A stretch of 64,000 bases of DNA from a plasmid. The notes under the pieces are model-generated. The model worked only from the letters and a program-made list of their open reading frames with translations. It was not told the origin of the DNA and did no database searches. Below are positions 1,883-37,520 of this stretch, piece after piece. Made by a program: the position numbers and the translations under genes. Position 1 is the first letter of the stretch. Every line of letters begins with the position of its first letter. The stretch is from NCBI RefSeq assembly GCF_054482525.1, contig NZ_JBTHVG010000003.1; one strand, written 5' to 3'.

Positions 1883-4800
1883 GTGAAACTTAGAAAAACA
1901 ATCACCTCAGCGATTATTGCATCAATGGTTGCCAATACTATGAGTTGGGCTTTTTATGTCACACTCATAAACATGGTAATGACACCACGTGTTTACGCTG
2001 CTGACGCTATATTTGACCAGCTCGAAAATAATTTTAACCTTGCAAATCCTAACGCAAATCGCAATGCAACCACCAGTGCTCAGGACATTGTGGAGAAATA
2101 CAAGAACGCGGATTCAGGCGAGAATGTCAGTGGGAAGATCACCGAGAAATACGTGGGTAAAGCCGAATCCGCTAATCTTAATCTCGGGAAGTATGGGGCA
2201 GGGAACTCTAATGAAAGTGTCATGAAAAATGCCGCATCCGATGGAAAGTCTATTGGTAGCGCCGTACAACTGCCGAGTATGTCTGGAGGGACAATCAATT
2301 CAAACTACACCAAGGAAGGGGCAAAGCTGCTCTCTCGTGATGCTAATGGCAACATTGGTATAAGCAGTAATCCCAATACTACTCCTGGAACCAAAACAAA
2401 TACGGGAGAGATTTTCAGCTCAGAGCAAAAGCACAGCGATATAAAGTTCAACGCCGCAGATCGTTATGGGGATGAGGATGGCTTTGTTAACGATATAAAG
2501 AATCGGAAAAGCCAGTTATTTGATGCTCAAAGTTATGATGGCGTTGCCTACCGCACCCTCGTAAATGCTAACAAGGACAACCCGGCATCGTCTGTAAAGC
2601 CTAACGATCCCATGTTTACTGCGGGGAGAAATGAGATAACCAATGCTGTTGCTGGTACTGGAAACTGGCTTCAGAACTGTAATGTTGAGACCTCCAAAAA
2701 AACAGTAACCACACACTATCCTGATTACAAAGAGTTCTACTGTAACTCGCCTAAGCAAGATAACTTCAGCAGCTGCACGATAACTCGTGACTTCTCTGTT
2801 CCTGTATACATTTCAGGCGGAAACGGAGACATGTCGATGTGCGGCGATAATTGTGTGCGTATATGGTTTGGTCGCCGTGATGACAACTACTGGAGTGACG
2901 GGGTATTTGATAACGAACTGACATTAAAATTCCATCCGGATGCAAAATTGGCCTCAGCAAAGATTGTTAACGCGGAGTGGGATGACCACATGCGGGTAAC
3001 ACTTGATGGCACGCAGATTTTTGCTCACATAGATGGTGCATATCGAGAAAGTGACTATCCGGCTCCAAAGGGATCTTGGGAGTTAAAAAAATCGTGGAAA
3101 CTCGACAAAGTATACGATGTAACTGAAAAGGTCAGAAAATCAGTTTATGAAGAACCTGATCGTGAAGTGACAATGGCATCCAGAGTCTGGGTTGGTGGGG
3201 GAGGTGAAGGGTACTTTGAGGTTGAGCTGACGTTTGAAAATATGAAGCTCGAAGATAAGCACGTCCAGGAACCAGCTGGTTGTTACGATGCTGTACAAAC
3301 ACCAAATACATTCTGCCGTTTCGATCGGTTTAAAGATATGGATGTTGGCACGAAGCGGCTTCCGGAAAGCGTGCTTTCTATGGCAAAGCCGCTGTATGAA
3401 GGCGATAAAGGCTTTCTTACCTGGAAGACTAACCTTGAAGGCTATTTTTGTGATCCATTGGCTAAAGACAAGATTTGCTCTTATGACGCCAGTGGGAAAA
3501 TTATGAAAGACGCTAATGGAAAGGACCTCTGTTACAACTACGAAGAAATTAAGAGTATGCCTGATGCATGTAGTTCTTATAAAAATGATGCAGCATGTGT
3601 ACTCGATAAACAAACATGTGCAGAGGGTTGGTTCGATGAGGGCACTAACAGCTGCTACATGTATGAACAGAAATACACCTGTGACAGAGGTAAGGATGTA
3701 GTTCGTGAGGTTGAATCTTCTACAAATGCCTGTGTTGGCATGATCCCATGTTCTGGAGGAACATGCGAAACTGGGCCAAAGGAAGAGAACAACGATTTTG
3801 GAAAAGTTGCGGCTTATTCAAACATGGTTCAGTACATGCAGGGCGAAGCCAAATGCGAAGACCCTAACGATGCCAATTCCTGTTCTGTCTTTGAAGGAAA
3901 ACCTGAATGGTGTGGTCGTTCAGTAGGCTTTGTAAATGGCCTGGCAAAGACGGACTGCTGCGAAGCACCGCAGGGAACCGCAGGAGCACTTGAAGGTATC
4001 ATGCTTGCCGGATCTATGATCAGAAACACTAACTGGACCAGAGTTAATGCTCAGCTAATAAAATGGACCGGCGGTGATACAGGTACATGGGCTTCTATGT
4101 CCAATGCGGTCGGTGAGTGGACTGCATCAGCTGGTAAAACAGTAGGGCAAATGTGGAACAATGTCACGAGCTCCTTAACGAGCGTATATGAAAACGTCGC
4201 TGGTAATCTAAGCAGGGCAGTTGGGTCTTCCGCAACTTCTGGAGGGGCAGGAGGTGCTGGCCAGTTGGCACAGGAAACAATGTCCAGCTTCGGTATAGGT
4301 CAGCTTAAGCAGATGGCAATGAAGAAAGCCTACGAATTGCTACCAGATACAGTTCGAGACTTTGTCTTTAAGAACGTTGCTACTACCGGAGGAGAGGTTG
4401 TCTTCTCGGCTGCGGTTCAAAACTTTATGCTTGCATTAAACGTGATCGGTTGGATTTATACAGCCTATCAGGTCACTAAAATGCTTTTAGAAATGTTGGT
4501 AGCATGCGACCAGAAAGAGATGGAAGCTTCTATTCATAAGAATCAAAAATCCTGTTTTACATTAGATACGGAACGATGCGTCAAATATCTGAATGTTGGT
4601 TTCACAAAGAAATGCGTTAAAAAAGCAACAGACATGTGCTGTTATAATTCCATGTTGTCACGCGTTATTATGCAACAAGCTTATCCGCAATTAGGAATAG
4701 ACCCTGTCGCCTCTAATTGCGTGGGGCTATCAATAAAGCAAATACAGCAACTGGATTTCGATAAAATTGATCTGACGGAGTGGATTAATGATGCAGTTCA

Positions 4801-5071
4801 GGTAGGAGAAGTTCCTGATCAATATTCAAAATTCTCCGAAGAATCAATTGTGGAAAACTTACCATTCCAGAATGAGAACTATCAACTTCCATCAGAACGT
4901 ACCAAGGAAGCAATGGGCGGTGAAGAAAATATGATAAAGGCCAGACAAGAAAATGCTCAGGCTATAAAAGAGGAAAATGTAGATTGTAGCTATTTACCTC
5001 GACCGGCCATATGTGAGGTAGGTTCAACTACGCTGGATCCGGTTACGGGCAAGCAGTTGCCGAAATATTGA
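1883..5071 (+). CDS. traN: Mating-pair stabilisation protein TraN/TrhN-like (1062 aa, Cys-rich)
   Basis: GTG start with AAGGAG RBS; N-terminal signal peptide; many conserved Cys pairs, C-terminal CC motif (KKATDMCCYNSMLSRV); directly follows traU; size matches the long TrhN-type proteins of IncHI/SXT-like elements. Confidence 0.8.
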   Translation: MKLRKTITSAIIASMVANTMSWAFYVTLINMVMTPRVYAADAIFDQLENNFNLANPNANRNATTSAQDIVEKYKNADSGENVSGKITEKYVGKAESANLNLGKYGAGNSNESVMKNAASDGKSIGSAVQLPSMSGGTINSNYTKEGAKLLSRDANGNIGISSNPNTTPGTKTNTGEIFSSEQKHSDIKFNAADRYGDEDGFVNDIKNRKSQLFDAQSYDGVAYRTLVNANKDNPASSVKPNDPMFTAGRNEITNAVAGTGNWLQNCNVETSKKTVTTHYPDYKEFYCNSPKQDNFSSCTITRDFSVPVYISGGNGDMSMCGDNCVRIWFGRRDDNYWSDGVFDNELTLKFHPDAKLASAKIVNAEWDDHMRVTLDGTQIFAHIDGAYRESDYPAPKGSWELKKSWKLDKVYDVTEKVRKSVYEEPDREVTMASRVWVGGGGEGYFEVELTFENMKLEDKHVQEPAGCYDAVQTPNTFCRFDRFKDMDVGTKRLPESVLSMAKPLYEGDKGFLTWKTNLEGYFCDPLAKDKICSYDASGKIMKDANGKDLCYNYEEIKSMPDACSSYKNDAACVLDKQTCAEGWFDEGTNSCYMYEQKYTCDRGKDVVREVESSTNACVGMIPCSGGTCETGPKEENNDFGKVAAYSNMVQYMQGEAKCEDPNDANSCSVFEGKPEWCGRSVGFVNGLAKTDCCEAPQGTAGALEGIMLAGSMIRNTNWTRVNAQLIKWTGGDTGTWASMSNAVGEWTASAGKTVGQMWNNVTSSLTSVYENVAGNLSRAVGSSATSGGAGGAGQLAQETMSSFGIGQLKQMAMKKAYELLPDTVRDFVFKNVATTGGEVVFSAAVQNFMLALNVIGWIYTAYQVTKMLLEMLVACDQKEMEASIHKNQKSCFTLDTERCVKYLNVGFTKKCVKKATDMCCYNSMLSRVIMQQAYPQLGIDPVASNCVGLSIKQIQQLDFDKIDLTEWINDAVQVGEVPDQYSKFSEESIVENLPFQNENYQLPSERTKEAMGGEENMIKARQENAQAIKEENVDCSYLPRPAICEVGSTTLDPVTGKQLPKY

Positions 5072-5099: not shown

Positions 5100-5972
5100 T
5101 TACTTGGCTTTCAATGTTTTTTCTGGGAAGCCTTTTTTACCGTATTCACCGGTAAAGAGGTAATAATCTTTTCCGTTGATGGAGGCTGCAACACCCCCTG
5201 GAGTTGTTGTATTTGGGCTATCAGAACGGAAAATGATACCCGAAAAATCAGCGCTTGTTTCGTTTCCTTTAAATGGGATGAACACATAACGAATTACAGC
5301 GTAATCACCAGCGGGAAGGTTTAGCTGAGGAATTTCGGTTCCTGTTGCGGGGCGAATCGCCTGAAAGCTGTACATTGAATCTGTAGGGAAAACATCAGCA
5401 TCAGGCTTAGAGGGCAGATCACAGGTACTCCATTTATTGACGACTGCCATATCAATTTTACATGTGGCCAGAGCTGCTTTCTGTTTTTCAGGGTTGTATC
5501 CAAATGAGGCCTGAGTTGCTTTTGTATGCTCAAAAACATACTTAGCTCCTTCACGTACCAAACTTTCATCATTGTAAGGCAATTTTTTTGGATTGGGGAC
5601 GAACACTAGGTATTGATTGACCTGGATGTATTCGGCGTCAGAAGAACTGTACAAAGAGCCGAGGCTCATGATCCCAAAACCTTTTAGACCGCCTGTTACG
5701 TAGCCCATCGAACTATTGATGAGATACTTAGAAAGAAAGTTGTCGGCATCCCCTCCAGGAGTAACCTCTTGCTCCTTAAAATTAACGTCGAAACCAGCAA
5801 ACGAATAGGCATTCTTGGCGACAGAATCATTTGCTTTAGCATGCCAGTACTGGCCGTGACTGTACGCATTCAGAGCGGTGCCTGGCGTAGTGCCGGTGTC
5901 ACCGGCACAACCCGATAGGGAAAAACCAATGACGACAGAAGAGACCAGAGATACTAAACGTAAAAGTTTCAT
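5100..5972 (-). CDS. Lipoprotein, unknown function
   Basis: Signal peptide with lipobox LSGC (MKLLRLVSLVSSVVIGFSLSGCAG); convergent with traN. Confidence 0.6.
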   Translation of the reverse strand: MKLLRLVSLVSSVVIGFSLSGCAGDTGTTPGTALNAYSHGQYWHAKANDSVAKNAYSFAGFDVNFKEQEVTPGGDADNFLSKYLINSSMGYVTGGLKGFGIMSLGSLYSSSDAEYIQVNQYLVFVPNPKKLPYNDESLVREGAKYVFEHTKATQASFGYNPEKQKAALATCKIDMAVVNKWSTCDLPSKPDADVFPTDSMYSFQAIRPATGTEIPQLNLPAGDYAVIRYVFIPFKGNETSADFSGIIFRSDSPNTTTPGGVAASINGKDYYLFTGEYGKKGFPEKTLKAK

Positions 5973-6151: not shown

Positions 6152-7936
6152 ATGGGTAAGCCAACAGAAGAGCAAAGACCTGTTATCGAGAATGCTAGCG
6201 CAAACAATATGGTGATAGCAGCGCCTGGATCAGGCAAATCATTCACCATGATAGAAGCGGTTATATCGATTCTCAAAAAGTATCCATATGCAAGAATCGG
6301 GATGGTGACCTTTACTCGCGCTGCAACAAACGCACTTGCAGCAAAGTTACAAAAGCGATTGAGCAAGAAGGATCTTGACCGGGTGCTGGTGGATACTTTT
6401 CACGGACTCGTTAAGAAGCAACTGGACATGATTCGCTGGCCGGGAAAGATGTTGATAGGGCCAGCACAGAGATCTGTCATTCACCGGGCTTTGAAAGAAT
6501 CCGGTGTAACGATGAAGTTTGCTGAAGCTGAATTCGTTATTGATGCTATCGGCAGAGAAATGGATACGGATGTGATTTCAGTTCGGCATAACAGACAACA
6601 GATCCATTTATTTAATACCTATCAGGCGTTATGCCAGAAAGACCATGTGGCGGACCTCAATGCTCTTTCAAAATTTGTTGTCGGTCAAATGCATTCGGGA
6701 AAAATGCGCACGTTAGATTTGACACATTTGATAGTAGACGAAGTTCAGGATACTGACTCTATACAATTCTCATGGATAGCATTGCATACAAGAGCTGGAG
6801 TCTATACGAGTATAGTTGGAGACGATGATCAGGCCATCTACTCCTTCAGATCCTCAGGAGGAGTCAAAATATTTCAACAGTTTGAAAAACACTTCAGACC
6901 TAACATATTTTACTTAAACACATGCTTTAGGTGTGAACCTGAAATTTTAGAGGTGGCCGGAGCACTGATAGGAAAGAATGTTTACCGTTATGCCAAAGAG
7001 TTACGCTCGGCAAAAAAGGGAGGAGGAAAGGTCACTTTTCGTTCATATGTAGATATGGAGGAACAGATACAGGGTATTTTAAGCCTTATAAATCAGGATC
7101 CACATGGATGGGCAATTCTAAGCCGCAATAATGCTCACTTGGATGAGCTAGAAAGTTTGATCGAACAGCCAGTAATTCGTTACGGAGGTAAATCATTCTG
7201 GGATGAAAAAGAAACAAGCGATGTGTTAAGCCTTATGGCCTTTTTCCGACAATCAAATGATCCTCGCTTAATGAAGAGAGTATTGGCATTGTTTGGAGAA
7301 CAGGAATCAGTTTTGGATGATGTGGCATTGAGTATGAGAGGAAGAAAAGTTACTTTTGGCGACCTTGCCATCCCGGAGGACAGTTCTCTCGAAACAAAAA
7401 CATTACATTCAAACTTCGTGCGCTTTACCCAGGAAAGTACTGATAAAGTTGAGATAGCAAAACGTTTCGCCAACCTTACGAAATGGATGGAATCGTCGTC
7501 AATCAAGATGAGGAGTAATAAAGGTACAGCAACCTTAACAAAAATTGCTTTAGACACTTGTAAACAGTGGGCAGAAAAGACTGGTTGGATGAATATGATC
7601 AATCGTGCTGCTGCAATGTCATTAGGCCCTAGGAAGAAGGACGAGGAATACAGCCCAGAGAAAGTAGTCCTATCAACCTTGCATGGTTCAAAGGGTCTTG
7701 AGTGGAATAAAGTAATAATAATGAGTTGTAATGCGGATCAGATACCAAGTAAAAGATCAGTTGGGGAGGAGGCAATAGAAGAAGAAAGACGTTTGCTTTA
7801 TGTTGGATTTACGCGTGCAGAAAAGCAACTTTTTGTAATGTGGTATGGTGACCCTTCTTTCTTTTTAAGAGAATGCAGTGAAGAAAAGATAAAAGAAGCA
7901 GCTAATATTCGAATTTCTCCAGTTTATACAGAATAA
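6152..7936 (+). CDS. UvrD/Rep/PcrA-like SF1 DNA helicase (594 aa), solitary
   Basis: Walker A AAPGSGKS, motif II LIVDEVQDTDS, motif III GDDDQAIYSFR, motif V VLSTLHGSKGLEWNKVII, motif VI YVGFTRAEKQL; GAGG RBS 5 nt upstream of the ATG. Confidence 0.85.
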   Translation: MGKPTEEQRPVIENASANNMVIAAPGSGKSFTMIEAVISILKKYPYARIGMVTFTRAATNALAAKLQKRLSKKDLDRVLVDTFHGLVKKQLDMIRWPGKMLIGPAQRSVIHRALKESGVTMKFAEAEFVIDAIGREMDTDVISVRHNRQQIHLFNTYQALCQKDHVADLNALSKFVVGQMHSGKMRTLDLTHLIVDEVQDTDSIQFSWIALHTRAGVYTSIVGDDDQAIYSFRSSGGVKIFQQFEKHFRPNIFYLNTCFRCEPEILEVAGALIGKNVYRYAKELRSAKKGGGKVTFRSYVDMEEQIQGILSLINQDPHGWAILSRNNAHLDELESLIEQPVIRYGGKSFWDEKETSDVLSLMAFFRQSNDPRLMKRVLALFGEQESVLDDVALSMRGRKVTFGDLAIPEDSSLETKTLHSNFVRFTQESTDKVEIAKRFANLTKWMESSSIKMRSNKGTATLTKIALDTCKQWAEKTGWMNMINRAAAMSLGPRKKDEEYSPEKVVLSTLHGSKGLEWNKVIIMSCNADQIPSKRSVGEEAIEEERRLLYVGFTRAEKQLFVMWYGDPSFFLRECSEEKIKEAANIRISPVYTE

Positions 7937-8330: not shown

Positions 8331-9203
8331 ATGTCTAAAAATAAAGCTCGCAGTAAAGCCCTTCATCAAACCTTTAGTGAAATTATTCCAGAGATGGATA
8401 AGGCGCTAAACAAACAGCTCTTAGAAGTTCTGATGAAATATACAGAACGTGATAATGAACTGATTGTTATTTTGAATGAGGACGGCCCAAATATCATTGA
8501 ACTTAAGTCTCTTAAGCCTGTGTCGTTGTTGGCCGAAAAGCTTTCTGCTTATTCAAGCTATTATCATGTGGATGTTGTGGAGCTCGTGGTCAAGAAAATT
8601 GATTTCGAAGGAGCTTATAAGCTTCTTAAAGCTTCCCCAGATGTACCACTTTTTAAAAGCTTAACTGAACTGGATAAATATCTTGTTGAGGAGTTTGAAA
8701 AATACGGATTAAATTCATTTCTTGACGTGGATAATCTGGATTACTCACTTGAAAAAGCCAGTGAACTCAAAAATGAGCAGTTAATAAATTGGGTTTCGGA
8801 CATCATTTGCAAACGTGAAAAATTAACTTTACGTAAGCGTTTTGATGTCGCAGTAAAGGCCCACTACGAAAATGTAGAAAAAATGTATGATACCATTCGT
8901 CCGTTAATGAAAAAACTGGGTTTCCCAGAAGATCTCATGACGCACACCTTTAGTGAGTTAAGCGTTTTTGAAACTAAAGGATGGGACCATGCAATAAAAT
9001 CGAAAATTGAGACTCTCGCTAAGCGTGAAACTCAATATTTAGATGATGCGGCTAAAGCAGAGAATCGACGTCTTGTAACAGAGAAGTTGGAGAACTCTTT
9101 AGCGATTGCACCAACTAAACCAACAAGAAATTGGTTACATATTGCCGGAATTGCCTGTTTGGTAGTCTGCACGTTCATGTATGTAACTAATAAATTTATT
9201 TAA
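8331..9203 (+). CDS. Hypothetical protein with C-terminal membrane anchor
   Basis: 290-aa ORF, AT-rich codon usage, C-terminal hydrophobic helix WLHIAGIACLVVCTFMYV; no recognised motif. Confidence 0.5.
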   Translation: MSKNKARSKALHQTFSEIIPEMDKALNKQLLEVLMKYTERDNELIVILNEDGPNIIELKSLKPVSLLAEKLSAYSSYYHVDVVELVVKKIDFEGAYKLLKASPDVPLFKSLTELDKYLVEEFEKYGLNSFLDVDNLDYSLEKASELKNEQLINWVSDIICKREKLTLRKRFDVAVKAHYENVEKMYDTIRPLMKKLGFPEDLMTHTFSELSVFETKGWDHAIKSKIETLAKRETQYLDDAAKAENRRLVTEKLENSLAIAPTKPTRNWLHIAGIACLVVCTFMYVTNKFI

Positions 9204-9260: not shown

Positions 9261-9638
9261 ATGTCATATCTTGAATATATCAATGAAGTAAAAGTGTCCG
9301 GGATAGTTATCAGTGCTGTGGAGAAAAAAATGACTGACCAGAGTATAGGTTTGTTAATAAAGCTCAAAAATAGGATGAAGACAGAAGTTGATGGTGAAAT
9401 CACTGAGAGAGAATTTTCAGTTCAAATCAAGGTGTCGCCTGAAATGTATTCAACCTGTTTCACTGGTATAAATCAGGGTGATGAGTTGATGGTCTCCGGT
9501 TATATTGTTGTCGATACTATTATGATTGAAGGGAGAGAACATCCTCTTGACTACATGAGAGTGGTAGCAACAAGTAAGTTGGCTCACATACCTAAACCTC
9601 TAAAAGGTTTTGGACAAAGTAGCTTTAATCAGATCTGA
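9261..9638 (+). CDS. Hypothetical protein, possible OB-fold ssDNA-binding-like
   Basis: 125 aa with GAGGAG RBS; beta-rich pattern loosely resembling SSB/PriB. Weak assignment. Confidence 0.4.
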   Translation: MSYLEYINEVKVSGIVISAVEKKMTDQSIGLLIKLKNRMKTEVDGEITEREFSVQIKVSPEMYSTCFTGINQGDELMVSGYIVVDTIMIEGREHPLDYMRVVATSKLAHIPKPLKGFGQSSFNQI

Positions 9639-9658
9639 CATTAAACCCACCCTAAAGG

Positions 9659-9689
9659 GGAGAAATCCCTTCATGGGATTTCTCCTTTT
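9659..9689 (+). terminator. Intrinsic terminator-like hairpin
   Basis: GGAGAAATCCC-TTCAT-GGGATTTCTCC perfect 11-bp stem followed by TTTT; lies between ORFs 9261..9638 and 9699..10676. Confidence 0.6.
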
Positions 9690-9698
9690 GGAGTCCCC

Positions 9699-10676
9699 AT
9701 GAAACAAAAATTTAGGGCTACTGCAATAAGTAGTAATCAACTTAGTTTTTTTTCTATACTCGATATAGATGAAGATGAAATAACGCAAATAGTTGATTCA
9801 CCCAAAGAGCATTTAAATGATGCTTACACGTCCGGATTAAACTTTAAATCAGAAGAAAGTAACATTTCTGAGATAAATTATGATTCTGAAAGGCGTGAAA
9901 ATCACCTTTATGAAAAATCCAAATTACTTAAAAATCAGATTTTGCATACAATTAATTTTGCAGCAGAAACAGATTATCTATATACGGTTGAAGAATATAA
10001 CCCAGATTTGGGTGGTCTGGTAATAGAATGGACCCCTGAGGATGTGTATGTTGTTTTTCTATCCGCTATGGAAGAGTCTTTGGAAATCATTAAAGAACTA
10101 GTGTTGAGGAGAAAGTTATTCTTCAAAGATGACAATGGTAATATCACAGTGAATCCACTTTTAGAAGCTGAAACACGGTGGTATATGTCAAAATCATTTG
10201 AATACACTTGTTTATGTCATGGACTTGATGCATGTGAATTTAGAGCGGAATTAAAATCATGGCTCTATTATCATTCGCATCGTTCGATTAGTGAAAACAC
10301 GAAATTAGCTGAATGCAGGAATGATGATGAAATCATTTTGCATGATTGCAATGACGATATGGGCTGGGACATCTTCTTTGATCAGGATTATTTAATGTCA
10401 GAAAAAAAACTGGCTGTTAAATGGACTGACAGGGAAATTATGGATGTTTACATAAAAGCTTTTAAATCCACATTAGAGTTGTTTGACGAGCTTGTTTCAT
10501 GTGATCTGTTAACTAAACGAAACGCTTTTGGCAAGTTAGAAATCAATCCAATATTCGAAAATCATTTTGAATGGATCATGTCTGAAGCTTTTGAAATAGT
10601 GGGAAATCATCTTGGTTATAATGTGCCTCAAATCAGGAAACTGATGGCAACTATTTGCCAAATGAATCTCAAATAA
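9699..10676 (+). CDS. Hypothetical protein
   Basis: 325-aa ORF, GGAG RBS, no recognised motif. Confidence 0.5.
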   Translation: MKQKFRATAISSNQLSFFSILDIDEDEITQIVDSPKEHLNDAYTSGLNFKSEESNISEINYDSERRENHLYEKSKLLKNQILHTINFAAETDYLYTVEEYNPDLGGLVIEWTPEDVYVVFLSAMEESLEIIKELVLRRKLFFKDDNGNITVNPLLEAETRWYMSKSFEYTCLCHGLDACEFRAELKSWLYYHSHRSISENTKLAECRNDDEIILHDCNDDMGWDIFFDQDYLMSEKKLAVKWTDREIMDVYIKAFKSTLELFDELVSCDLLTKRNAFGKLEINPIFENHFEWIMSEAFEIVGNHLGYNVPQIRKLMATICQMNLK

Positions 10677-10733
10677 AATGCCACTGGCAAACATCTGCCA
10701 GAGGGCGGTGTTTGCATTTTACCGGAGTTAAAA

Positions 10734-11792
10734 ATGTCTAATGCCGCTATGAAGTTAAATGAAACATCTTCTGATGCTTATGAAAAATTAGAAGCTCTTC
10801 TTTCCCCGGATGTTATAAAGTTAAAACATTATGTGGATAAAGGTGAGTATCTTTTAGTTCTAGCAAAGGACCTTTTTGGTATTCCAGAAATGGATCCAAA
10901 GATGGCTGTGCCTGTTTTCAAAACTAAAACCTCGTATCGAGCTCCGCTGAACAAAGACTACATACCAAATCCCCGAATACTTGAACAAGTGGTTAAACTG
11001 CTTATCAGTCCGGATATAGATTTAAGTGTGTGTCTTAAAGGTGAGTCCGGTTCTGGCAAGACTGAAATGGTAATGTACATTAGCCACATGATGAATTGGC
11101 CGCTGACAATTAAGCAGATCAACAGCAATATTCGAGTTGATGAGCTTGAAGGTGAGCGCAGTCTTAATGGTGGTAATACAGGTTTTGTACACAGCGATTT
11201 GGTAACGGGATTTCGTAATGGTCACCTCATTCTTCTGGATGAAGTGGACAAAATCGATCCTGATACGGCAGCAAAACTTCACATGCCCATTGAACGTAAG
11301 CCCTGGTCACTCAGTGCTAATGGTGGTGAGGTTATAACTGCTAATGGCTACACGCGATTTATTGGTACTGCAAACACAAACATGAGTGGAGGCGCTCGCC
11401 GGTTCGTTTCTTCTCAACGTCAAGATGCAGCTTTTATAAAGCGGTTCTTGATAGTTGAAATGGAGAAGCCCGACAAAGTTGCTTTAACCAATGTGCTTAC
11501 TAAACGATATAGCTCTTTGCCTTTTCAGGTCATTGAGAAGTTCGTAAGAGTAGCGATTGCAGTAAATGACTCTGGTACAGAAGACAGTGTGATGGATATT
11601 CGTCAATTAGTAGCTTGGGTTGGCACGTCGATGACGTTAAAAACCTTTAGTCTTCTTGACACTTTCAAAATAGCTTTTGCTTCTGCTTTACCTTTACATG
11701 TGGTCGATCTTGTTCTTCAAGCTATAGATCTTTCTCTTGGCGAAGACAAGGATAAATCGCTGGAGTATTTCACAGCAAAAAAGTCGAGTTAG
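10734..11792 (+). CDS. AAA+ ATPase, CobS-like/MoxR-like
   Basis: Walker A GESGSGKTEM, Walker B LILLDEVDK, about 350 aa as in the CobS-like ATPases of conjugative elements and phages. Confidence 0.8.
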   Translation: MSNAAMKLNETSSDAYEKLEALLSPDVIKLKHYVDKGEYLLVLAKDLFGIPEMDPKMAVPVFKTKTSYRAPLNKDYIPNPRILEQVVKLLISPDIDLSVCLKGESGSGKTEMVMYISHMMNWPLTIKQINSNIRVDELEGERSLNGGNTGFVHSDLVTGFRNGHLILLDEVDKIDPDTAAKLHMPIERKPWSLSANGGEVITANGYTRFIGTANTNMSGGARRFVSSQRQDAAFIKRFLIVEMEKPDKVALTNVLTKRYSSLPFQVIEKFVRVAIAVNDSGTEDSVMDIRQLVAWVGTSMTLKTFSLLDTFKIAFASALPLHVVDLVLQAIDLSLGEDKDKSLEYFTAKKSS

Positions 11793-12109
11793 ATGGGATT
11801 TGTTATGAAACCTCTGATATTTGTATCTCAGAGTTATCCCATCTTGAATTTAGTGCGTTTTTAAGTACGGATGGTGCTGCTACCATTGCTATAGCAAAAA
11901 ACGGAACTAATTTTACTGGACTTATGCAACTGAATAACGACTATTCTTTATTGTTTTATCATGATGGTAAAATAAATATGGAAGGTCTGATTAAACAAAT
12001 GGAATTAAAAGGTTATATGTATCAGGGAGCAATGGGCAATGATGATGTTGTTGCTGAGTTTCCCGGTATTCTTTTAATTTCACCAGAGAAGCTTTAATAT
12101 CAACCCTAT

Positions 12110-12150
12110 CGGGAAATCTTTCCCGTTGGGGAGGGTTTCCCCTTTTTTTT
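12110..12150 (+). terminator. Tandem hairpins with T8 tract
   Basis: CGGGA-AATCTT-TCCCG then GGGG-AGGGTTT-CCCC followed by TTTTTTTT, immediately before the GGAG RBS of the next gene. Confidence 0.6.
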
Positions 12151-12160
12151 GGAGAAACCC

Positions 12161-13288
12161 ATGACTTTAAATACTTCAATGCTTAACAAAGTATCTGCAA
12201 AACAAATCTCTGAGAATTTTGCAAAATCATATCCAGATTTACTGGAAGGTGCAGTTATAACAAAAATTGAAATAAGTGGCTGTCAAGGATCGCGTCGAAC
12301 CGATAAAATCGATTTGTCTTATGATGGAGATGATATTACGGATCAAAAAAGCGTATCTAAAAGCGAAGTACGCTGGATTGACATAAAAGCCCTTAGCTTC
12401 AAAAGTACGATTACCAGCAGAATATCAACTCTTTGCTCACGCTTGTGCATCCGCTATAGCAATATGTGGATTTTACCAGTATCCAGTATGGAAGAGTTTC
12501 TGGAAGGGGCCCAAGAGATTGAACGAGAGTTTCAGGCAGGTATTCAAAACGTTGTAGACAATTATGAGATGCATATTGAGGCTGAAAAAAATAGAAGCCC
12601 AAGAATGTCTTCTTTGATTGATCAGTTGAAATTAACTAAAGATGATTTCATAAAATCCTTTAGATTTAATATTGCTCACTTTATTCCTTTTACGCCTATT
12701 AGCGTTGAAGGTGATGAAACCCAGGACTACTATCAGGAACAATTGATAACAGATCTGGCAGAAGAAGCAATGAAGGTTTATGAAAAAATTAGCAAAAATA
12801 ACAATTTGCGCTCAAGTACTATTGACCGACTGAAGCAAATGCAAAATAAGATCATTAGCTTCATGTTTATACATAAAGAGGCGGCAGTACTTGCAGAAGC
12901 TATAAAACACATAATGAATAATTTACCTAAAGGTGCCATTTCTGAACCTCGCGACGTTGCGGTGTTACAGCAGTGGTTTTATTTCATGAGTGATGCTTCA
13001 ATGTTAAAGCGTATTATTTCAGGAGAGCAAAAGGTTACTGACTGGTTGGAATCTATTACCAGATCATTTAATCAAAGCTCACAAACAGAACCGAACGCGC
13101 TACAGAACACAGGTATTGAAGCTATTTTAGATTCAACAAATGTGTTCCAGGTTGAACCTGTCGTAGAGAACGATATAAATAACAGCACGTTTTCAAACAC
13201 TGATCCTGTAGCTGAACCTGAGAAATCAGTTTCGCAACAGGAAGACAATGTTGAAAATGGTTTTGATATCGAGCTCAAAGGCTGGTAA
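12161..13288 (+). CDS. Hypothetical protein (between the AAA+ and vWA genes)
   Basis: Start moved to the ATG at 12161 with a GGAG RBS (the ORF-track TTG start at 12149 lies inside the terminator T-tract); no recognised motif. Confidence 0.5.
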   Translation: MTLNTSMLNKVSAKQISENFAKSYPDLLEGAVITKIEISGCQGSRRTDKIDLSYDGDDITDQKSVSKSEVRWIDIKALSFKSTITSRISTLCSRLCIRYSNMWILPVSSMEEFLEGAQEIEREFQAGIQNVVDNYEMHIEAEKNRSPRMSSLIDQLKLTKDDFIKSFRFNIAHFIPFTPISVEGDETQDYYQEQLITDLAEEAMKVYEKISKNNNLRSSTIDRLKQMQNKIISFMFIHKEAAVLAEAIKHIMNNLPKGAISEPRDVAVLQQWFYFMSDASMLKRIISGEQKVTDWLESITRSFNQSSQTEPNALQNTGIEAILDSTNVFQVEPVVENDINNSTFSNTDPVAEPEKSVSQQEDNVENGFDIELKGW

Positions 13289-13308
13289 CTGTTTGCTTTA
13301 TTAAAAAC

Positions 13309-13350
13309 CCCAGATGGGTACTTCACCATCTGGGTGAGTACCCCTTTTTT
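13309..13350 (+). terminator. Terminator-like element with two mutually exclusive stems
   Basis: CCCAGATGG / CCATCTGGG stem overlaps an alternative GGGTAC / GTACCC stem, followed by T6. Confidence 0.55.
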
Positions 13351-13365
13351 ATAAAGAGGTATTCT

Positions 13366-15378
13366 ATGAAATTAGATCTTAAATCATCACCGCGCCATAT
13401 TAAGCGTTTACAGAATATAGCAAAAGTCATTAGCGGCTTAGGCGATGTAAGAGTTGTAATAGACGACAATACCAAAGGACCGTATTTTGATCCTGTAAAT
13501 AAAGTTTGTGTTTTACCAAACGGCGATTATAGCGATGATGACTTTGTCAGTCTGATTGAAGGTTTTACCTGTCATGAAGCTGGTCATGGTCGCTATACCG
13601 ACAGCGAGGTTTACAGTGACGCCTTTAATAGTGTTCTCAAGTCATCTGAAGGGTTTACACGCTTCGATGACGGAATGAATGCAGAGTTTGAGAGCCTCGC
13701 TGAGAAACGTAAAGCTTATAGCAGGGCAAAACGTCTTACCGGGCTTATAAATCTGTTCGATGATGTACAGATGGAAGAGAAGGTTGGTAACGATTATCCG
13801 GATGCAAAGCGGCGGCTTGCAGCCACTTACGCACTGATGGTTAAAGCCGGAAGGATGACTCCTGATATATCTTCTCGTCCGGAAAATCCTGTCCTATTTA
13901 TTGAGTGGTATCTGCTTAACTCATTGCGAGTAAAAGTCCTTCAGCAGGCAGGTCACAAAGAAACACTCGATCCGTTTTTTGACTATGCCCAAAAGATACT
14001 TTCTCCAGTAATTTCTGATGTTGAGGAAATTTTTCATGATGCTCTTGGTTGTGAAAATACTCAGGGCTGTGAATCCCTTGCTCGTAAGACCCTGGCTCTT
14101 TTAGAGAGACTGCGGGATGAGGCAAGGGAACAACAGCAGCAGACAGAGCAGGAGGAGCAGGAGGCATATGATGAATCCGAGACCGATACCGATACCGATA
14201 CCGAATCAGAAGATAAATCGCTTGAGTCGACTGATAGTCGTGAGGATGATTCTGAGGACGATAGTGAAGGTCAGGCAGATACTTCCGATAACTCTGATCT
14301 TGCTCAAGAGGGATGTTCTGAGCCTTCAGAACTTGCTGAAGATAACGAGGGAAATAATGAACCCACCGGTGGCAATCCCACAGGTGATAACATTATTGAA
14401 GACGATACTGATGCGATTAACCCTTCCGAGAGTGAATCAGATGAAGCCAGTTCGACTAACGTTGAAGATGAAAGTAACTTTTCATCGGCTCAATGGGAGA
14501 TACTGGCAGATTTGTTGGATGCCTTTCTTGGCAGTGATGAGGATAGCGAAGATTATCACGATGCTTTGGCTAAAGAGATTGAAGGTATTGCATCAAAAGT
14601 ATCCGATGACGTGAAAGCCGAATTCGGTGCTTCTGAATGGGATATCCCTGATCTCCTTATCGATTTGAATGTTTACAATGAGGCTTTGTCTCTGAGTCAT
14701 TCAATCGGTAGCGACTTGTCTGTTTTACAGCAGGTTAAAATGCGTGGCCGAAACAAAACTCATGAGCGTGGAATTACCTTCGATGGAAATCGATTAATTC
14801 TGTCACCAATGGGAGTTCGTGATGTCTTCAGAGCTCAAAGCGAATCTAAAAATAGAGGGCATGTTGGCCTCGTATTAGTTCGTGATATTTCAGCGTCAAT
14901 GGCTAATGATGAAAGATATATTCATGCCATTAAGTCAGATCTTGCTTTATCGATGGCCGCTGAAAGTTTGTCAAAAATGCATGTCTCCAATATAGTCTTT
15001 CCCTTCAAGGAAAGTGAATTTGAGATTATCAAAACGTTTGATCAAAGCGTTGAGGAATCTCTATCGAAATTCACTCTTGGATGTAAGGGTTATTATACCC
15101 CTACGGGATCGGCTTTAATGGCAGCTGTTGATCTGTTACTTGACAGCCAATTCGATAGGAAAATAATTTTTCTTATAACTGATGGTTATCCGAATAAATC
15201 GGAATTTACTATCGGCGAAGTTATGGAAAAGGCTAAGTGTAATGGAATAGAAATCGTTGGTGTTGGTATTAAGACTGATGAAATAATTGGTTTTGAAACG
15301 GACACTTTCGTAACAGTTGATGATACTTCTTTATTGTCTATTGAAGTCAGTAAGCTAGTTCATCAAATACTTTCTTAA
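13366..15378 (+). CDS. von Willebrand factor A protein with acidic linker, CobT-like
   Basis: C-terminal vWA with MIDAS motif (LVLVRDISASM, later ITDG); long D/E/S/T-rich low-complexity middle region; AAGAGG RBS; downstream of the CobS-like ATPase. Confidence 0.75.
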   Translation: MKLDLKSSPRHIKRLQNIAKVISGLGDVRVVIDDNTKGPYFDPVNKVCVLPNGDYSDDDFVSLIEGFTCHEAGHGRYTDSEVYSDAFNSVLKSSEGFTRFDDGMNAEFESLAEKRKAYSRAKRLTGLINLFDDVQMEEKVGNDYPDAKRRLAATYALMVKAGRMTPDISSRPENPVLFIEWYLLNSLRVKVLQQAGHKETLDPFFDYAQKILSPVISDVEEIFHDALGCENTQGCESLARKTLALLERLRDEAREQQQQTEQEEQEAYDESETDTDTDTESEDKSLESTDSREDDSEDDSEGQADTSDNSDLAQEGCSEPSELAEDNEGNNEPTGGNPTGDNIIEDDTDAINPSESESDEASSTNVEDESNFSSAQWEILADLLDAFLGSDEDSEDYHDALAKEIEGIASKVSDDVKAEFGASEWDIPDLLIDLNVYNEALSLSHSIGSDLSVLQQVKMRGRNKTHERGITFDGNRLILSPMGVRDVFRAQSESKNRGHVGLVLVRDISASMANDERYIHAIKSDLALSMAAESLSKMHVSNIVFPFKESEFEIIKTFDQSVEESLSKFTLGCKGYYTPTGSALMAAVDLLLDSQFDRKIIFLITDGYPNKSEFTIGEVMEKAKCNGIEIVGVGIKTDEIIGFETDTFVTVDDTSLLSIEVSKLVHQILS

Positions 15379-15393
15379 TAAACTCTACCCAAT

Positions 15394-15422
15394 CGGGGCA
15401 AAAGGCCCCGGTGGGTCTTTTT
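15394..15422 (+). terminator. Terminator-like hairpin
   Basis: CGGGGC-AAAAG-GCCCCG stem, T5 tract a few nt downstream. Confidence 0.5.
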
Positions 15423-15449
15423 GCTCCATGAAGGAATAAGGAGCAAAAT

Positions 15450-15671
15450 ATGACTCAGATAAAAACTTACCGTGTAGAACATGAAAAAGTCGGTGCGATG
15501 CATAAAGTCCGTATTTTCGGACGTGTTGGTGAAGTTATAAGCAATGATAGCCCTCAGGAAAGAATCTTCCGCGAAGTCACTATAGCGGAGGGTAATAGCC
15601 AGCAGGCTGCGTTACTTGTAGATAACTACATACAGTGTCTTGAGAATAATGGCTTCACGACTGAAGCATAA
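15450..15671 (+). CDS. Small hypothetical protein (73 aa)
   Basis: TAAGGAG RBS 6 nt upstream of the ATG; bracketed by terminator hairpins. Confidence 0.45.
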   Translation: MTQIKTYRVEHEKVGAMHKVRIFGRVGEVISNDSPQERIFREVTIAEGNSQQAALLVDNYIQCLENNGFTTEA

Positions 15672-15676
15672 ATGTT

Positions 15677-15700
15677 GAGGGCCCCCGGGCCCTCTTTCTT
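15677..15700 (+). terminator. Terminator-like hairpin
   Basis: GAGGGCCC-CCG-GGCCCTC followed by a T-rich run. Confidence 0.55.
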
Positions 15701-15784
15701 AAATTCTGCGTTGTGGGTTTCTCCCTGTCTTCTGCACCGCAGAAGGCATTGAGAAACTCACAATGCCAGATAAGAGAGATCATC

Positions 15785-17017
15785 ATGACTTATGCATCCC
15801 CGGCTCTTCGTCGTAATCCACAGGAAGTATCTGAACACTTTATTAAACTCGTTCATGCTCGAATTGCTGAAGTGTCTGGCTGGAAGTATATATTCGAAAG
15901 AATACCTGCTTTCAAAGACGCTTGTGCAAAAGCCCCGAGCCAGGTTCCTTGCCCGTTTACTGGCGCAGGGAAATCGAAGTTTCGTTTCCGACAAAAAGAC
16001 CTTTATACCGGATGTGCGATCCATAATGACTTTCCGGTAAATGAGTTTTGCGACGGAATTGATGTTCTGGCGAAATATTATGAATTAAGTAAAACGCAGA
16101 CTTGCAAAAAGATTCTCTCAGATTTTTTCGGGATGGATCTGCATGCTCCGTTAACTGACGCCGACATTGAAAATGAACGACGCTATAAATCAGCAGTTCG
16201 TGCCACAGAAACTCTTGACCGAGAGGAAGTGGCAAAGCGAATGCGAAAACTTGATGTGATGTATCACTATACCGGTGAAATCAAGCCTAATACTCCTGTT
16301 GCTTTGTACCTCCGTAATCGTGGGATCTCCCGCTTACTGAGTCACTTACCAAAGGATTTAGGCTTTAATAACCGGATCTACTATTGGGATAAAGATAAGC
16401 AGAAATCGATTATCTATCCGGGAATGATTGCGATCTATCGTGACACCCGAGGTCGGCCTCTGACTATTCATAGAACATACGTAGACAAAAATGGTGATAA
16501 GGCACCTGTAGAAAATCCAAAGCTGATGATGAAGCCTCCTGCCGATATGACAGGTGGCTCAATTCAGTTGTTTGACCCTCACTATGATTCAGGTAGTTCG
16601 ACCTGGACACTGGGAGTGGCTGAAGGGATCGAGAACGCGCTTTCTGTTGTAGAAGCGACTTCAACACCATGCTGGGCAGCCAGCTCCGCATGGTGCCTTG
16701 AAAACGTTACTGTTCCTGATTTTTTACTGCCTCCGCCGGATGTAAAATCTATAAACTTTTATATCTGGGCGGATAAGGATATTGCTAACTCACAAGGCAC
16801 TCGTGCCGGTATTGAAGCTGCTCAGCGACTTCAAAGCCGCATGGTTGAGTTTTTGGCTAAACGATATCCCGCATCAAAGCTGACAATTGAAGTCTTCGAA
16901 CCAGCACAAGATATTCCTGATGGGAAAAAGGGTATCGACTGGAACGATGTTCTCCAGTTAACAGGGCAGGATGGATTCCCGATTCACTGGGCTCCTGAAT
17001 GTCTTAATCAGCTGTAA
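15785..17017 (+). CDS. DNA primase, CHC2 zinc finger + TOPRIM
   Basis: Zinc-finger-like CPFTGAGKSKFRF...C..H; TOPRIM-like GVAEGIENALS and YIWADKD; start moved to the ATG at 15785 (the ORF-track GTG at 15713 overlaps the upstream terminator). Confidence 0.7.
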   Translation: MTYASPALRRNPQEVSEHFIKLVHARIAEVSGWKYIFERIPAFKDACAKAPSQVPCPFTGAGKSKFRFRQKDLYTGCAIHNDFPVNEFCDGIDVLAKYYELSKTQTCKKILSDFFGMDLHAPLTDADIENERRYKSAVRATETLDREEVAKRMRKLDVMYHYTGEIKPNTPVALYLRNRGISRLLSHLPKDLGFNNRIYYWDKDKQKSIIYPGMIAIYRDTRGRPLTIHRTYVDKNGDKAPVENPKLMMKPPADMTGGSIQLFDPHYDSGSSTWTLGVAEGIENALSVVEATSTPCWAASSAWCLENVTVPDFLLPPPDVKSINFYIWADKDIANSQGTRAGIEAAQRLQSRMVEFLAKRYPASKLTIEVFEPAQDIPDGKKGIDWNDVLQLTGQDGFPIHWAPECLNQL

Positions 17018-17028
17018 CAACGATAACT

Positions 17029-17060
17029 CCCCCGCTTTTTGCGGGGGGGGTTATCTTATC
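17029..17060 (+). terminator. Rho-independent terminator after primase
   Basis: CCCCCGC-TTTTT-GCGGGGG stem (G8 run) followed by a T-rich stretch. Confidence 0.6.
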
Positions 17061-17887: not shown

Positions 17888-18766
17888 ATGAAGTTAGCTA
17901 CGGACCTGGTAAAAGCTATTTTGATTAGAAATGGCGTTGAACCAGTAAATATAAGCGAATCATCTAAGTTATCTTTGAAACAACCACTGACAGAACTTAA
18001 ATTCAGTTTATATTTGCGAACTGAGCATTTATCTCACTTCCTACCCGGTTATGTTTATTCTATAAAAGAATGTCCACTGTCATATGACATCGGGATCGAA
18101 ATTCAGAAAATCTTCGAAAGTTTACATTTGTTAAACGAAGAATTTGAATCCCTCGGTTTTGTTTCTGTATGGATAGAAATGCATCAAAGCATTTTTGAAC
18201 AAAGTCGGTTTAAGAAAAGTAACTTTACTTTTCGGGAGGAAGAGGTCGAGCTTGCTAAAGGGCTTGTTTGTTCTCACAATTCACAAATAAGTAATGCGGC
18301 TTATTTCTGGCTTCAGCACTTTGAGGAGTTTATGATTTATGTTCGTAATAAGCTTATCGACCTCTTTCGAGAGGCCTATGACCTGATCCTTGGAATGCAG
18401 CAAGTATTTTTCATTCGGGAAAAGGAAGAGCTGTTGAAAACTATAAGTTATGGCGATGAGCTGTATGAGGTGAAATTCATGGCGGCTGAGCTTTACTCTA
18501 TCGAACAGAACTTAAAGTGTTCTGAATCGATAAGTACAAAATCTCAAGCTTCGGCATATATTAACCGCATCCGTGAGTTTGTGCGTTCGGGGTGGAGGCA
18601 GGGCTATATAGTCTGCCATCATAAGCGAAGTAATCAAATTTCATCATTGTCATTACCGATGTACTTGAAAGATACGTCAGGCCGAAGTGCTCGAAAGCGA
18701 GTAAAACGTCTTATATCTTCTACAGTTTGTGGTAGAAATAAAGATTTAGGTCTTACAGATTTTTAA
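17888..18766 (+). CDS. Hypothetical protein, first of a run of about 300-aa ORFs
   Basis: 292 aa, GGAGG RBS, preceded by the hairpin CCCTGATG...CATCAGGG at 17837-17861. Confidence 0.5.
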   Translation: MKLATDLVKAILIRNGVEPVNISESSKLSLKQPLTELKFSLYLRTEHLSHFLPGYVYSIKECPLSYDIGIEIQKIFESLHLLNEEFESLGFVSVWIEMHQSIFEQSRFKKSNFTFREEEVELAKGLVCSHNSQISNAAYFWLQHFEEFMIYVRNKLIDLFREAYDLILGMQQVFFIREKEELLKTISYGDELYEVKFMAAELYSIEQNLKCSESISTKSQASAYINRIREFVRSGWRQGYIVCHHKRSNQISSLSLPMYLKDTSGRSARKRVKRLISSTVCGRNKDLGLTDF

Positions 18767-18784
18767 TTAAATTATACCCATGTG

Positions 18785-18820
18785 GGGATCACACCCCATA
18801 TGGGAGTGATCCCTTTTTTT
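18785..18820 (+). terminator. Terminator hairpin with T7
   Basis: GGGATCAC...GTGATCCC stem (loop ACCCCATATGGGA) followed by TTTTTTT. Confidence 0.6.
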
Positions 18821-18836
18821 ATTGAGAGAGGATCAC

Positions 18837-19772: not shown

Positions 19773-19840
19773 TTAAAATTATTTTCTCCCATAGGGATTT
19801 CTCCCTATGGGAGAAATCCCTCTATTAAGAGGGTATTGAA

Positions 19841-20761: not shown

Positions 20762-20827
20762 TCTAACCCATCCGGGAACCTGCTTCCCGGTGGGAAGCAC
20801 TTCCTTTTTAGTCATGAGGTAGTGTAA

Positions 20828-21766: not shown

Positions 21767-21937
21767 TCCTTTTGCTTCAGTCCAAAAAAGTAACTTTGGT
21801 TGGCTGAAGACACTTGTCTATGACAATGTAAAATCTGTCGCTGGCATCTTCTTTTAGCTTAACCAAATTTTTATCTAACCCAGTGGGGAAGTCGCTTCCC
21901 TTCTGGGGCACTTCCTCTCAAATTCGAGGTAGTGTAT

Positions 21938-30677: not shown

Positions 30678-30843
30678 ATAACTTGGGCTTTGCGCATTAA
30701 ACCCTTGCCGCAGGCGGTGTACCGCATATCCGGCACAGACAGTCAGTTTTTTCTGGCAGCTTAAATTTGACACTGCTTAATATAGTGATTCATTAAACAG
30801 GTTCAGTATGCTGCCAGAACGTTTTAGTCGTAATGGGCGTCCG

Positions 30844-32343: not shown

Positions 32344-32368
32344 ATTGATCACCGAAGAAGCGTATCCC

Positions 32369-35046: not shown

Positions 35047-35131
35047 AATTTTCCTCGTACGGCTGGTACGGCCAGCAGAAAACGTTGCTGTACAGAAAGG
35101 TGCTGCCCGGAAAGCAGCACCTTTCTGTCTG

Positions 35132-36411: not shown

Positions 36412-36433
36412 GACATCCCCTTAATTAATAAAA

Positions 36434-37496: not shown

Positions 37497-37520
37497 ACAA
37501 AACCGGGGTTTTCACCCCGG
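37497..37520 (-). terminator. Rho-independent terminator after terW
   Basis: CCGGGG-TTTTCA-CCCCGG (plus-strand reading) with a T-run on the minus strand just downstream of the terW stop. Confidence 0.6.

Follow-up and report, generated by a model that had tools for sequence, protein, structure and literature searches.

We find that a 7.8-kb block (positions 9,261 to 17,017) of a 64,000-nucleotide plasmid stretch (NCBI RefSeq assembly GCF_054482525.1, contig NZ_JBTHVG010000003.1; the whole stretch is called the window below) carries three genes that are kept together in very distant elements, encoding an AAA_5 ATPase, a protein of the family DUF3150 and a 670-amino-acid (aa) protein that ends in a vWA domain. 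This three-gene unit is real, old and under selection, because its synteny is conserved and its ratios of nonsynonymous to synonymous substitution (dN/dS) are low. With moderate confidence we read the block as the IncHI2 version of an entry/establishment gene set of MOBH plasmids, whose three proteins would form an AAA+ machine that protects the incoming plasmid from restriction. An original prediction, made from the letters alone, had pointed to a CobS-like ATPase and a CobT-like vWA protein on either side of an unknown gene; the open reading frames (ORFs) that it listed were all found where it had placed them, those of the block all lie on the plus strand, and their coordinates agree with the RefSeq annotation of identical plasmids.

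The window belongs to the backbone of IncHI2 plasmids. The block is 100% identical in more than 1,100 PLSDB plasmids, whose hosts are chiefly Escherichia, Salmonella and Enterobacter and whose types are IncHI2/IncHI2A, MOBH and MPF_F. PLSDB holds 281 more records at 60-80% identity; as an example we looked at an IncHI1B plasmid that a related protein search had brought up. The core of the block consists of the following features:

10734..11792, plus strand: AAA_5 ATPase, 352 aa (Pfam AAA_5)
11924..12097, plus strand: 57-aa annotated ORF between the ATPase and DUF3150 genes (RefSeq CDS in identical plasmids)
12111..12150, plus strand: terminator-like hairpin, G+C-rich, with a T-run, directly 5' of the ribosome-binding site and ATG of the DUF3150 gene
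12161..13288, plus strand: DUF3150 protein, 375 aa from the annotated ATG at 12161, or 379 aa from 12149 (Pfam PF11348)
13366..15378, plus strand: 670-aa adaptor protein with a predicted M48-like N-domain, an acidic linker and a vWA domain (domain and motif searches)

Conserved synteny and purifying selection

The trio is kept together and in the same order in 10 of the 11 informative loci, which come from very distant elements and were sampled through contigs encoding homologues and through plasmid annotations. The plasmids among the ten are IncHI1B (L014), an IncHI-like Klebsiella plasmid (L003), IncC (L002), the IncT plasmid Rts1 (L013), a Stutzerimonas MOBH plasmid (L004) and a Providencia plasmid (L005), and the genome or metagenome contigs, which were reached via distant DUF3150 representatives, are L006, L009, L012 and L017. 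Common to all ten is the order ATPase, an optional spacer gene, DUF3150, vWA protein. The original prediction had let its case depend on the three genes being syntenic in related elements, and on this point it holds. All IncHI2, IncHI1, IncC and related plasmids that we examined carry the module, and between IncHI2 and IncHI1B its genes are under strong purifying selection, with dN/dS of about 0.09 for the ATPase, 0.035 for DUF3150 and 0.07 for the vWA protein, next to 0.10 for the neighboring Toprim primase-like gene; these values are rough, as dS is saturated in this comparison.

A metagenome lineage (L007/L008) has the ATPase, a 181-aa gene, DUF3150 and a Toprim gene without a vWA gene, which shows that the adaptor is not an obligatory companion of these two proteins, DUF3150 and the ATPase. 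The prediction had also held that CobS/CobT-like pairs recur on conjugative elements and phages. Such pairs do occur in phages, but a trio that contains DUF3150 was not found there: DUF3150 has no match in 50,697 phage records or in PHROGs.

The homologous locus of IncC plasmids

The IncC counterparts of the trio are vcrx089 (ATPase), vcrx094 (DUF3150) and vcrx095 (vWA protein). All three proteins are reciprocally homologous between IncHI2 and IncC, with BLASTP identities of 27% for the ATPase (275 residues, E 4e-26), 18% for DUF3150 (3e-4) and 22% for the vWA protein (2e-22), and the Vcrx089 homologue is the best match within the syntenic locus. In the IncC hde locus the three homologous proteins are encoded in the same order, downstream of traN, on a plasmid that is likewise MOBH and MPF_F. 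The two loci differ in that the four IncC genes vcrx090-ssb-bet-exo stand between those for the ATPase and DUF3150, whereas the core trio is contiguous in IncHI2, and in that IncHI2 adds the TrhI helicase, a 125-aa and a 325-aa ORF and the Toprim primase-like gene. No bet or exo was found in the IncHI2 block.

What does the IncC locus do? Deletion of vcrx089-090 lowers transfer 25-fold into Vibrio cholerae O395, a recipient with type I restriction, the deletion plasmid transfers normally when the recipient is an hsdR mutant or an E. coli strain near-isogenic to the donor, and expression of vcrx089-090 in the recipient rescues transfer of the deletion mutant (PMC7498323). The same deletion raises restriction 400-900-fold for EcoKI and EcoBI and about 10-fold for EcoRV and EcoVIII (PMC11602122), and the authors of the IncC work call the anti-restriction mechanism novel. 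In reverse transcription PCR, complementary DNA primed inside vcrx094 contains vcrx087, vcrx089 and bet (PMC7498323), and for this reason the DUF3150 gene vcrx094 belongs to that operon. The guess of the original prediction that the module acts in establishment or anti-defence agrees with these 25-fold and 400-900-fold effects; the corresponding role in IncHI2 would follow by homology from the phenotype of the IncC vcrx089-090 double deletion. The R27 transcriptome paper and an IncHI comparative genomics preprint say nothing on the trio genes.

Several points weigh against an anti-restriction role of the IncHI2 module. The identity of its ATPase to Vcrx089 is just 27%, BLASTP against the ORFs of the IncHI2 block revealed no homologue of vcrx090, whose position is taken by the 57-aa ORF, and the IncC phenotype comes from the joint deletion of vcrx089 and vcrx090, not of the ATPase gene alone (PMC7498323). 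The IncC transposon insertion sequencing screen did not flag vcrx094 or vcrx095 (PMC7498323); judging from its design, it could not have revealed an anti-restriction role for them, because the Cas+ and the Cas- recipients both carried a restriction system. No known oriT adjoins the locus, so its genes need not be among the first to enter the recipient. In L007 the genes for the ATPase, DUF3150 and the primase-like protein are present and a vWA gene is missing, and natural insertions of insertion sequences (IS), described below, make clear that a plasmid survives the loss of the module.

Is it feasible that the effect on restriction is indirect? The trio could be a chaperone for the plasmid's own DNA-handling proteins (the helicase, an SSB-like protein and the primase; Bet and Exo elsewhere) on the incoming single strand, and would then counter restriction through faster conversion to protected double-stranded DNA or through repair. 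We consider this possible, though on the unlikely side. It stays plausible because the DNA-processing neighborhood is constant: UvrD-like, SSB, RecT, exonuclease or Toprim primase genes surround the trio in every element examined. UvrD-like genes lie upstream of the trio in L003, L006 and L009, a Toprim gene lies 3' of it in L003, L009, L014 and L017 and also follows DUF3150 in L007, and a UvrD-like helicase, an SSB, or RecT together with an exonuclease stands beside the trio in many elements. In Vibrio phage ICP2, too, the CobT-CobS-like pair (L021 3969-6842) adjoins the genes for a primase and a replicative helicase. Moreover, the IncC ATPase and DUF3150 genes are co-transcribed with ssb-bet-exo (PMC7498323), and deletion of recT or exo in Rts1 cuts transfer 20-100-fold (PMC10838148). 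However, the transfer defect of the IncC vcrx089-090 deletion vanishes in a recipient without hsdR (PMC7498323), which speaks against a general defect in replication or establishment, the text of the Rts1 study names neither the ATPase nor DUF3150 as needed for transfer from E. coli to E. coli (PMC10838148), and a pure assembly role would not need the conserved zinc-peptidase signature that is described below.

Natural disruptions and dispensability for conjugation

In Rts1 (L013 29030-32192) the vWA gene is split by IS2 and the plasmid conjugates in spite of it, and the trio is absent from the genes that the text of a systematic Rts1 deletion study gives as necessary for transfer from E. coli to E. 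coli (PMC10838148). Because of these two observations we conclude that the trio genes are dispensable for conjugation itself and that the module is accessory, which fits a host-range or anti-defence function and speaks against a core role in transfer. A few natural IncHI2 plasmids also carry disrupted copies, with IS1B or IS3 in the vWA gene and ISApl1 or IS1B in the ATPase gene.

These disruptions bear on the idea that the trio is a factor of the mating apparatus that assists assembly of the type IV secretion system or pilus encoded upstream (trhU, trhN). Its position suggests as much, since the module lies near the end of Tra2 on the same strand as trhN and, in Rts1, between traU and traH/traG/traN. 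Yet Rts1 conjugates with the interrupted gene and with the trio unnamed among its required genes, the IncC vcrx089-090 deletion mutant transfers normally to non-restricting recipients (PMC7498323), and no signal peptide or membrane segment is evident by eye in the three proteins; we therefore hold a mating-apparatus role to be very improbable.

A further alternative is that the trio is a conflict or defence module, a MoxR-vWA sensor-effector that is directed against phages or competing mobile elements in the host cell and does not serve the entry of its own plasmid. MoxR-vWA modules are part of many predicted conflict systems (PMC7159879), the upstream UvrD-like helicase resembles GajB, and the backbone contains other conflict genes, such as that of a HipA-like toxin at 53980-55305. 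PADLOC, however, matches neither DUF3150 nor the vWA protein, and its match to the ATPase is marginal (E 2e-4 or weaker). The location of the module is also the conserved transfer backbone and not a variable defence island, its synteny near traN and DNA-processing genes is fixed, and its IncC homologue acts for the plasmid in the recipient (PMC7498323). A conflict module is thus improbable in our judgement.

The ATPase

The AAA+ ATPase with Walker A and B motifs that had been predicted is indeed there: an AAA_5 domain (Pfam, E 9e-28) carries Walker A (GESGSGKT) at residue 103, Walker B (LILLDE) at 165 and a GTAN motif at 211. Its sequence matches in the PDB are midasin, NorQ, CobS and CbbQ, each of which works with a vWA/MIDAS partner (MIDAS, metal ion-dependent adhesion site). 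The IncHI2 gene conforms to this arrangement, as both Walker motifs are intact and a vWA-MIDAS gene lies one gene away on the same strand. On its sequence, the ATPase belongs to the AAA_5 / MoxR-CobS-NorQ-CbbQ class and is distantly homologous to IncC Vcrx089.

As a candidate for CobS proper the ATPase was rejected, with 34.4 bits against the TIGR01650 cut-off of 558.55. The predicted likeness to CobS and CobT therefore survives as a distant relationship, seen in the PDB matches and in vWA homologues that match Pfam CobT, and not as membership of those families, for which the scores fall below the cut-offs. Could the pair be the motor of a true chelatase that inserts cobalt or another metal during cofactor synthesis? 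Weak matches to CobS and cobaltochelatase models and the PHROG labels 'porphyrin biosynthesis' and 'CobT subunit' point that way, but the scores (34 versus 559 bits and 33 versus 779 bits, match versus curated cut-off) are far from those of the families, the adaptor keeps an HExxH that CobT lost, and the constant partners are DUF3150 and DNA-processing genes. The 64-kb window also has no CobN-sized gene, as trhN is its sole ORF of more than 700 aa, and here the original statement that there is no cobalamin context was correct. We regard a chelatase as scarcely conceivable.

The vWA protein retains a putative zinc-peptidase site

The 670-aa protein was predicted to have a very acidic linker and a MIDAS-containing vWA domain, and both were borne out. 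Its layout is an N-domain (1-255), an acidic disordered linker (about 256-400) with 37% Asp plus Glu and 1% Lys plus Arg, and a C-terminal vWA domain, in which all five MIDAS residues (D507-x-S509-x-S511, T578 and D606) are invariant in seven homologues at 18-34% identity. The vWA domain is similar to that of NorD.

The N-domain carries H70-E71-x-x-H74, D133 and E137, which are invariant in 18 sequences down to 18% identity, Firmicutes included, and an HExxH...E signature is also found in partial or distant copies (L010, L016, L017 and the "CobT" of phage ICP2). Thus both the HExxH and a downstream Glu ligand are kept across the family, whereas sequence comparison shows a genuine CobT to be without HExxH at the corresponding place. 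The second His (H74) and the Glu (E137) are 63 residues apart, a spacing that we take to resemble that of M48 peptidases such as BepA. Consequently, the N-domain appears to be an M48-like gluzincin, that is, a predicted zinc peptidase.

Is the protein CobT? CobT proper (PF06213 / PF11775) was considered and rejected, because only VWA-type models match it. Since more distant vWA homologues in L009, L012 and L017 do match Pfam CobT PF06213, the 670-aa protein is best placed by its sequence relationships within the wider CobT superfamily and outside the CobT family. When a profile of the vWA family was aligned with CobT in the PDB, the vWA part aligned significantly and the N-domain did not. A homologue search that used just the N-domain yielded nothing but fragments.

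DUF3150, the preceding gene slot and the hairpin

The middle gene, which had been called unknown, exists as an ORF but is not without a family: its product matches Pfam PF11348 (DUF3150) with an E value of 3.8e-23 over model positions 1-241 of 257. The hidden Markov model and fold searches that had been proposed for it thus succeeded in their first half, whereas PDB fold and sequence searches gave no informative match. An AlphaFold2 model (pLDDT 81.8, pTM 0.74) has a small beta-sheet and helical bundles, followed by a disordered acidic tail (residues 305-375) that ends ...KGW-COOH. The family comprises about 280 representative clusters at E values up to 0.001, and in 75 of 86 diverse homologues the C-terminal residue is Phe, Trp or Tyr. 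The typical ending is ...[FW]-G-x-G-[FW]-COOH after the disordered acidic tail, and the copy in the window ends ...KGW (13200-13288). The terminal aromatic residue looks like a docking motif, for which the ATPase pore, the MIDAS site or the peptidase pocket could speculatively be the receptor.

The slot between the ATPase and DUF3150 genes, which holds 57 aa in IncHI2 (11924-12097), is occupied by genes of 117-302 aa in other elements, for example L002 6861-7769 (vcrx090), L017 6166-6810, L012 4779-5522 and L015 708-1478. No similarity is detectable between the slot proteins of different elements. Several of them have an aromatic C-terminus (...DHFF, ...SWVF, ...TFWF, ...SAAF). Some look like WGR domains on visual inspection; their precomputed Pfam records contain no match.

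The hairpin with its T-run lies directly 5' of the DUF3150 start, and an equivalent is found in IncHI1B (L014) at 8378-8415. It may attenuate read-through, so that DUF3150 and the adaptor would be expressed less than the motor, which would be hexameric. Further terminator-like hairpins follow the vWA gene (15392-15412), the 73-aa ORF downstream of it (15677-15694) and the primase-like gene (17027-17049), and the region has 23 terminator-like sites versus 9.7 expected. A search of the 64-kb window against Rfam gave no match.

Proposed mechanism

Our analysis establishes which genes the block contains, their domains and motifs, the conserved synteny, the purifying selection and the homology to the IncC locus; complex formation, proteolysis, the target and the IncHI2 anti-restriction role are what we infer from these. 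In the model that we favor, the 352-aa AAA_5 ATPase would be a ring-shaped motor. The M48-like N-domain of the 670-aa adaptor would bind the lid of the ATPase in the way that CobT_N binds that of CobS, the flexible acidic linker of the adaptor would tether the vWA domain, and the MIDAS would grip a target protein. DUF3150, always encoded between or beside its partners, would be a third subunit, either client, co-adaptor or effector, and would hold the place of CobN, Rubisco or NorB in related machines. With ATP the complex would remodel its target protein and might also cut it; cutting is proposed because the adaptor, unlike true CobT, keeps an intact HExxH...E zinc site. The job of the machine would be to shield a plasmid that has just arrived in the recipient from restriction enzymes, those of type I in particular, by disabling a host protein or nucleoprotein complex, and this job seems the most likely because of the homology with IncC Vcrx089. 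The machine would work alongside the neighboring helicase, small DNA-associated proteins and primase.

A bolder form of this model, which we put forward tentatively and consider unlikely, is that the trio is an ATP-driven, MIDAS-targeted zinc protease that destroys or dismantles host restriction complexes, such as HsdR of type I enzymes stalled on incoming DNA, with DUF3150 as a tail-anchored adaptor or decoy. The acidic tail and terminal aromatic residue of DUF3150 would then insert into the pore of the ATPase, into the MIDAS site or into the pocket of the peptidase. If such a protease exists, it would be a new enzymatic class of anti-restriction system, common to the IncHI, IncC/A and IncT plasmids examined, would also cover the copies reported for SXT/R391 and IncP-7, and would be related to the CobS/CobT genes of phages.

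Comparison with known systems

The closest architectural parallel is CobS-CobT-CobN. A 2026 preprint with cryo-EM and crystal structures reports that in CobT a disordered linker of some 90 residues joins the vWA domain to an N-domain whose crystal structure is M48C-like, and that this N-domain binds the small (lid) subdomain of CobS (bioRxiv 10.64898/2026.07.21.739949). Both systems have an AAA_5 motor, an adaptor in which an M48-like N-domain is joined to a vWA-MIDAS domain through an acidic disordered linker (about 90-150 residues), and, in IncHI2 by our model, a third protein that the adaptor engages. They differ in that IncHI2 has no CobN but DUF3150 as the third partner, with a fold for which there is no known relative, and a conjugation context, and in that the HExxH...E site is intact in the IncHI2 adaptor and lost in CobT. 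An AAA_5 ATPase and an adjacent vWA-MIDAS gene are also shared with NorQ-NorD, CbbQ-CbbO (Rubisco activase), RavA-ViaA and midasin; relative to these MoxR/vWA remodelling pairs, IncHI2 has a predicted metallopeptidase domain in its adaptor and a conserved third gene, DUF3150.

Jumbo phages encode a MoxR ATPase and a metallopeptidase-vWA fusion for which a role in virion assembly or processing was proposed (Iyer et al., 2021, PMC7824862). These phage "CobS/CobT" pairs, including that of ICP2, share with the plasmid proteins the two-protein architecture and the HExxH in the N-domain of the vWA protein (HECYH at residue 64 in the ICP2 CobT-like protein), and the window proteins match PHROG 249 and 17276. 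The phage pairs are, however, without DUF3150, the gene order is T-S in ICP2, and a virion role cannot apply to a plasmid. In the literature we found no report of a metallopeptidase-vWA protein paired with a MoxR ATPase for conjugative plasmids.

ArdC is an anti-restriction protein that consists of a single-stranded DNA-binding domain and a zincin metalloprotease and has neither an AAA+ partner nor a vWA domain. Like the IncHI2 adaptor, it is a plasmid-encoded protein with an HExxH protease domain, and it is generally implicated in overcoming restriction in the recipient, but beyond the zincin motif it has no sequence or domain relationship to the vWA protein. ArdC-like metallopeptidases are mentioned in PMC7824862.

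Genes around the trio

The Tra2 transfer region contains the block at its distal end, where it is preceded, in this order, by trhU, trhN, a lipoprotein gene on the minus strand, the TrhI helicase gene and a 290-aa ORF. The block had been placed directly downstream of traN; the distance from trhN is actually 4.2 kb and three genes, although the neighborhood itself is conserved. The genes on either side of the trio are:

1883..5071, plus strand: TrhN/TraN mating-pair stabilisation adhesin, end of Tra2 (annotation; 25% identity to IncC TraN, E 4e-51)
5100..5972, minus strand: predicted lipoprotein, 290 aa, signal peptide with LSGC lipobox (directly after trhN)
6152..7936, plus strand: UvrD/Rep-like helicase, annotated TrhI (NCBIfam rep and uvrD, about 1e-52)
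8331..9203, plus strand: 290-aa ORF (homologue in the Klebsiella IncHI-like plasmid)
9261..9638, plus strand: 125-aa protein, conserved (no family match)
9699..10676, plus strand: 325-aa acidic protein (internal tandem duplication)
15450..15671, plus strand: 73-aa ORF between the vWA and primase-like genes (RefSeq CDS)
15785..17017, plus strand: Toprim primase-like protein, 410 aa from the annotated ATG at 15785, or 434 aa from the GTG at 15713 (Pfam, PHROG)

The lipoprotein is a positional analogue only of the IncC surface-exclusion lipoprotein Sfx, which is encoded between traN and acaB; BLAST shows no sequence similarity between the two. The 290-aa ORF at 8331-9203 has a hydrophobic C-terminal stretch (...WLHIAGIACLVVCTFMYVTNKFI) that resembles a membrane anchor.

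The 125-aa ORF was predicted to be SSB-like with an OB-fold, which could not be upheld: it has no Pfam match at E values up to 10 and none in NCBIfam or PHROG, and hhalign against a profile of four plasmid SSBs gave a probability of 5.7%. An IncHI1B homologue shares 85% identity with it, and one from the Klebsiella IncHI-like plasmid shares 34% in the alignment; in L006 a true SSB stands in its position. The 325-aa protein has no family or PDB match; its tandem duplication pairs residues 81-168 with 213-299 (30% identity, E 7e-11), and it has a homologue in L003. The 73-aa ORF is kept in IncHI1B and in the IncHI-like Klebsiella plasmid, with a dN/dS of 0.28.

Of the predicted CHC2/TOPRIM primase, the Toprim half stands and the CHC2 half does not. 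The protein matches Pfam DUF7146 (4e-19), Toprim_3 (7.5e-12) and the PHROG 510 DNA primase (2e-27). A CHC2 primase was rejected, as zf-CHC2 is not matched and only a degenerate C56...C77-x2-H80 pattern is present. A relative in L017 carries the P4/T7-type Zn_Ribbon_Prim, and from its residues the zinc-binding part of the IncHI2 protein is to be classed as a degenerate P4-type ribbon and not as CHC2.

Significance

The module is not categorically new, as it is a MoxR-class ATPase/vWA system with one homologue of known anti-restriction phenotype. Three features appear to be new: the unit that DUF3150 forms with the other two genes, a peptidase site that is intact in a plasmid adaptor, and the C-terminal aromatic motif. 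IncHI2, IncHI1, IncC and their relatives are major carriers of multidrug resistance, and the sole functional clue to the module is the strong protection against type I restriction in IncC. The trio unit, the retained zinc site and the aromatic C-terminus together give a testable model of the mechanism, one that could also account for the 'CobS/CobT' genes of phages. If the model is true, the module would be a host-range determinant of resistance plasmids and potentially targetable.

Other features of the window

Five ORFs of 292-320 aa without family matches follow one another on the same strand at 17888-22894. Two of them, at 20828-21766 and 21932-22894, are paralogues (27% identity, E 3e-37), and the other three share just a similar-looking N-terminus. 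The window also encodes a Tus-like terminus-binding protein (25479-26459), a HipA-family toxin-like protein (53980-55305) and, on the minus strand, a second UvrD/PcrA-like helicase (58948-60987). The G+C content of positions 30000-44000 is 51-54%, versus about 38-42% elsewhere, and this segment contains kinase-like and ATP-grasp-like ORFs.

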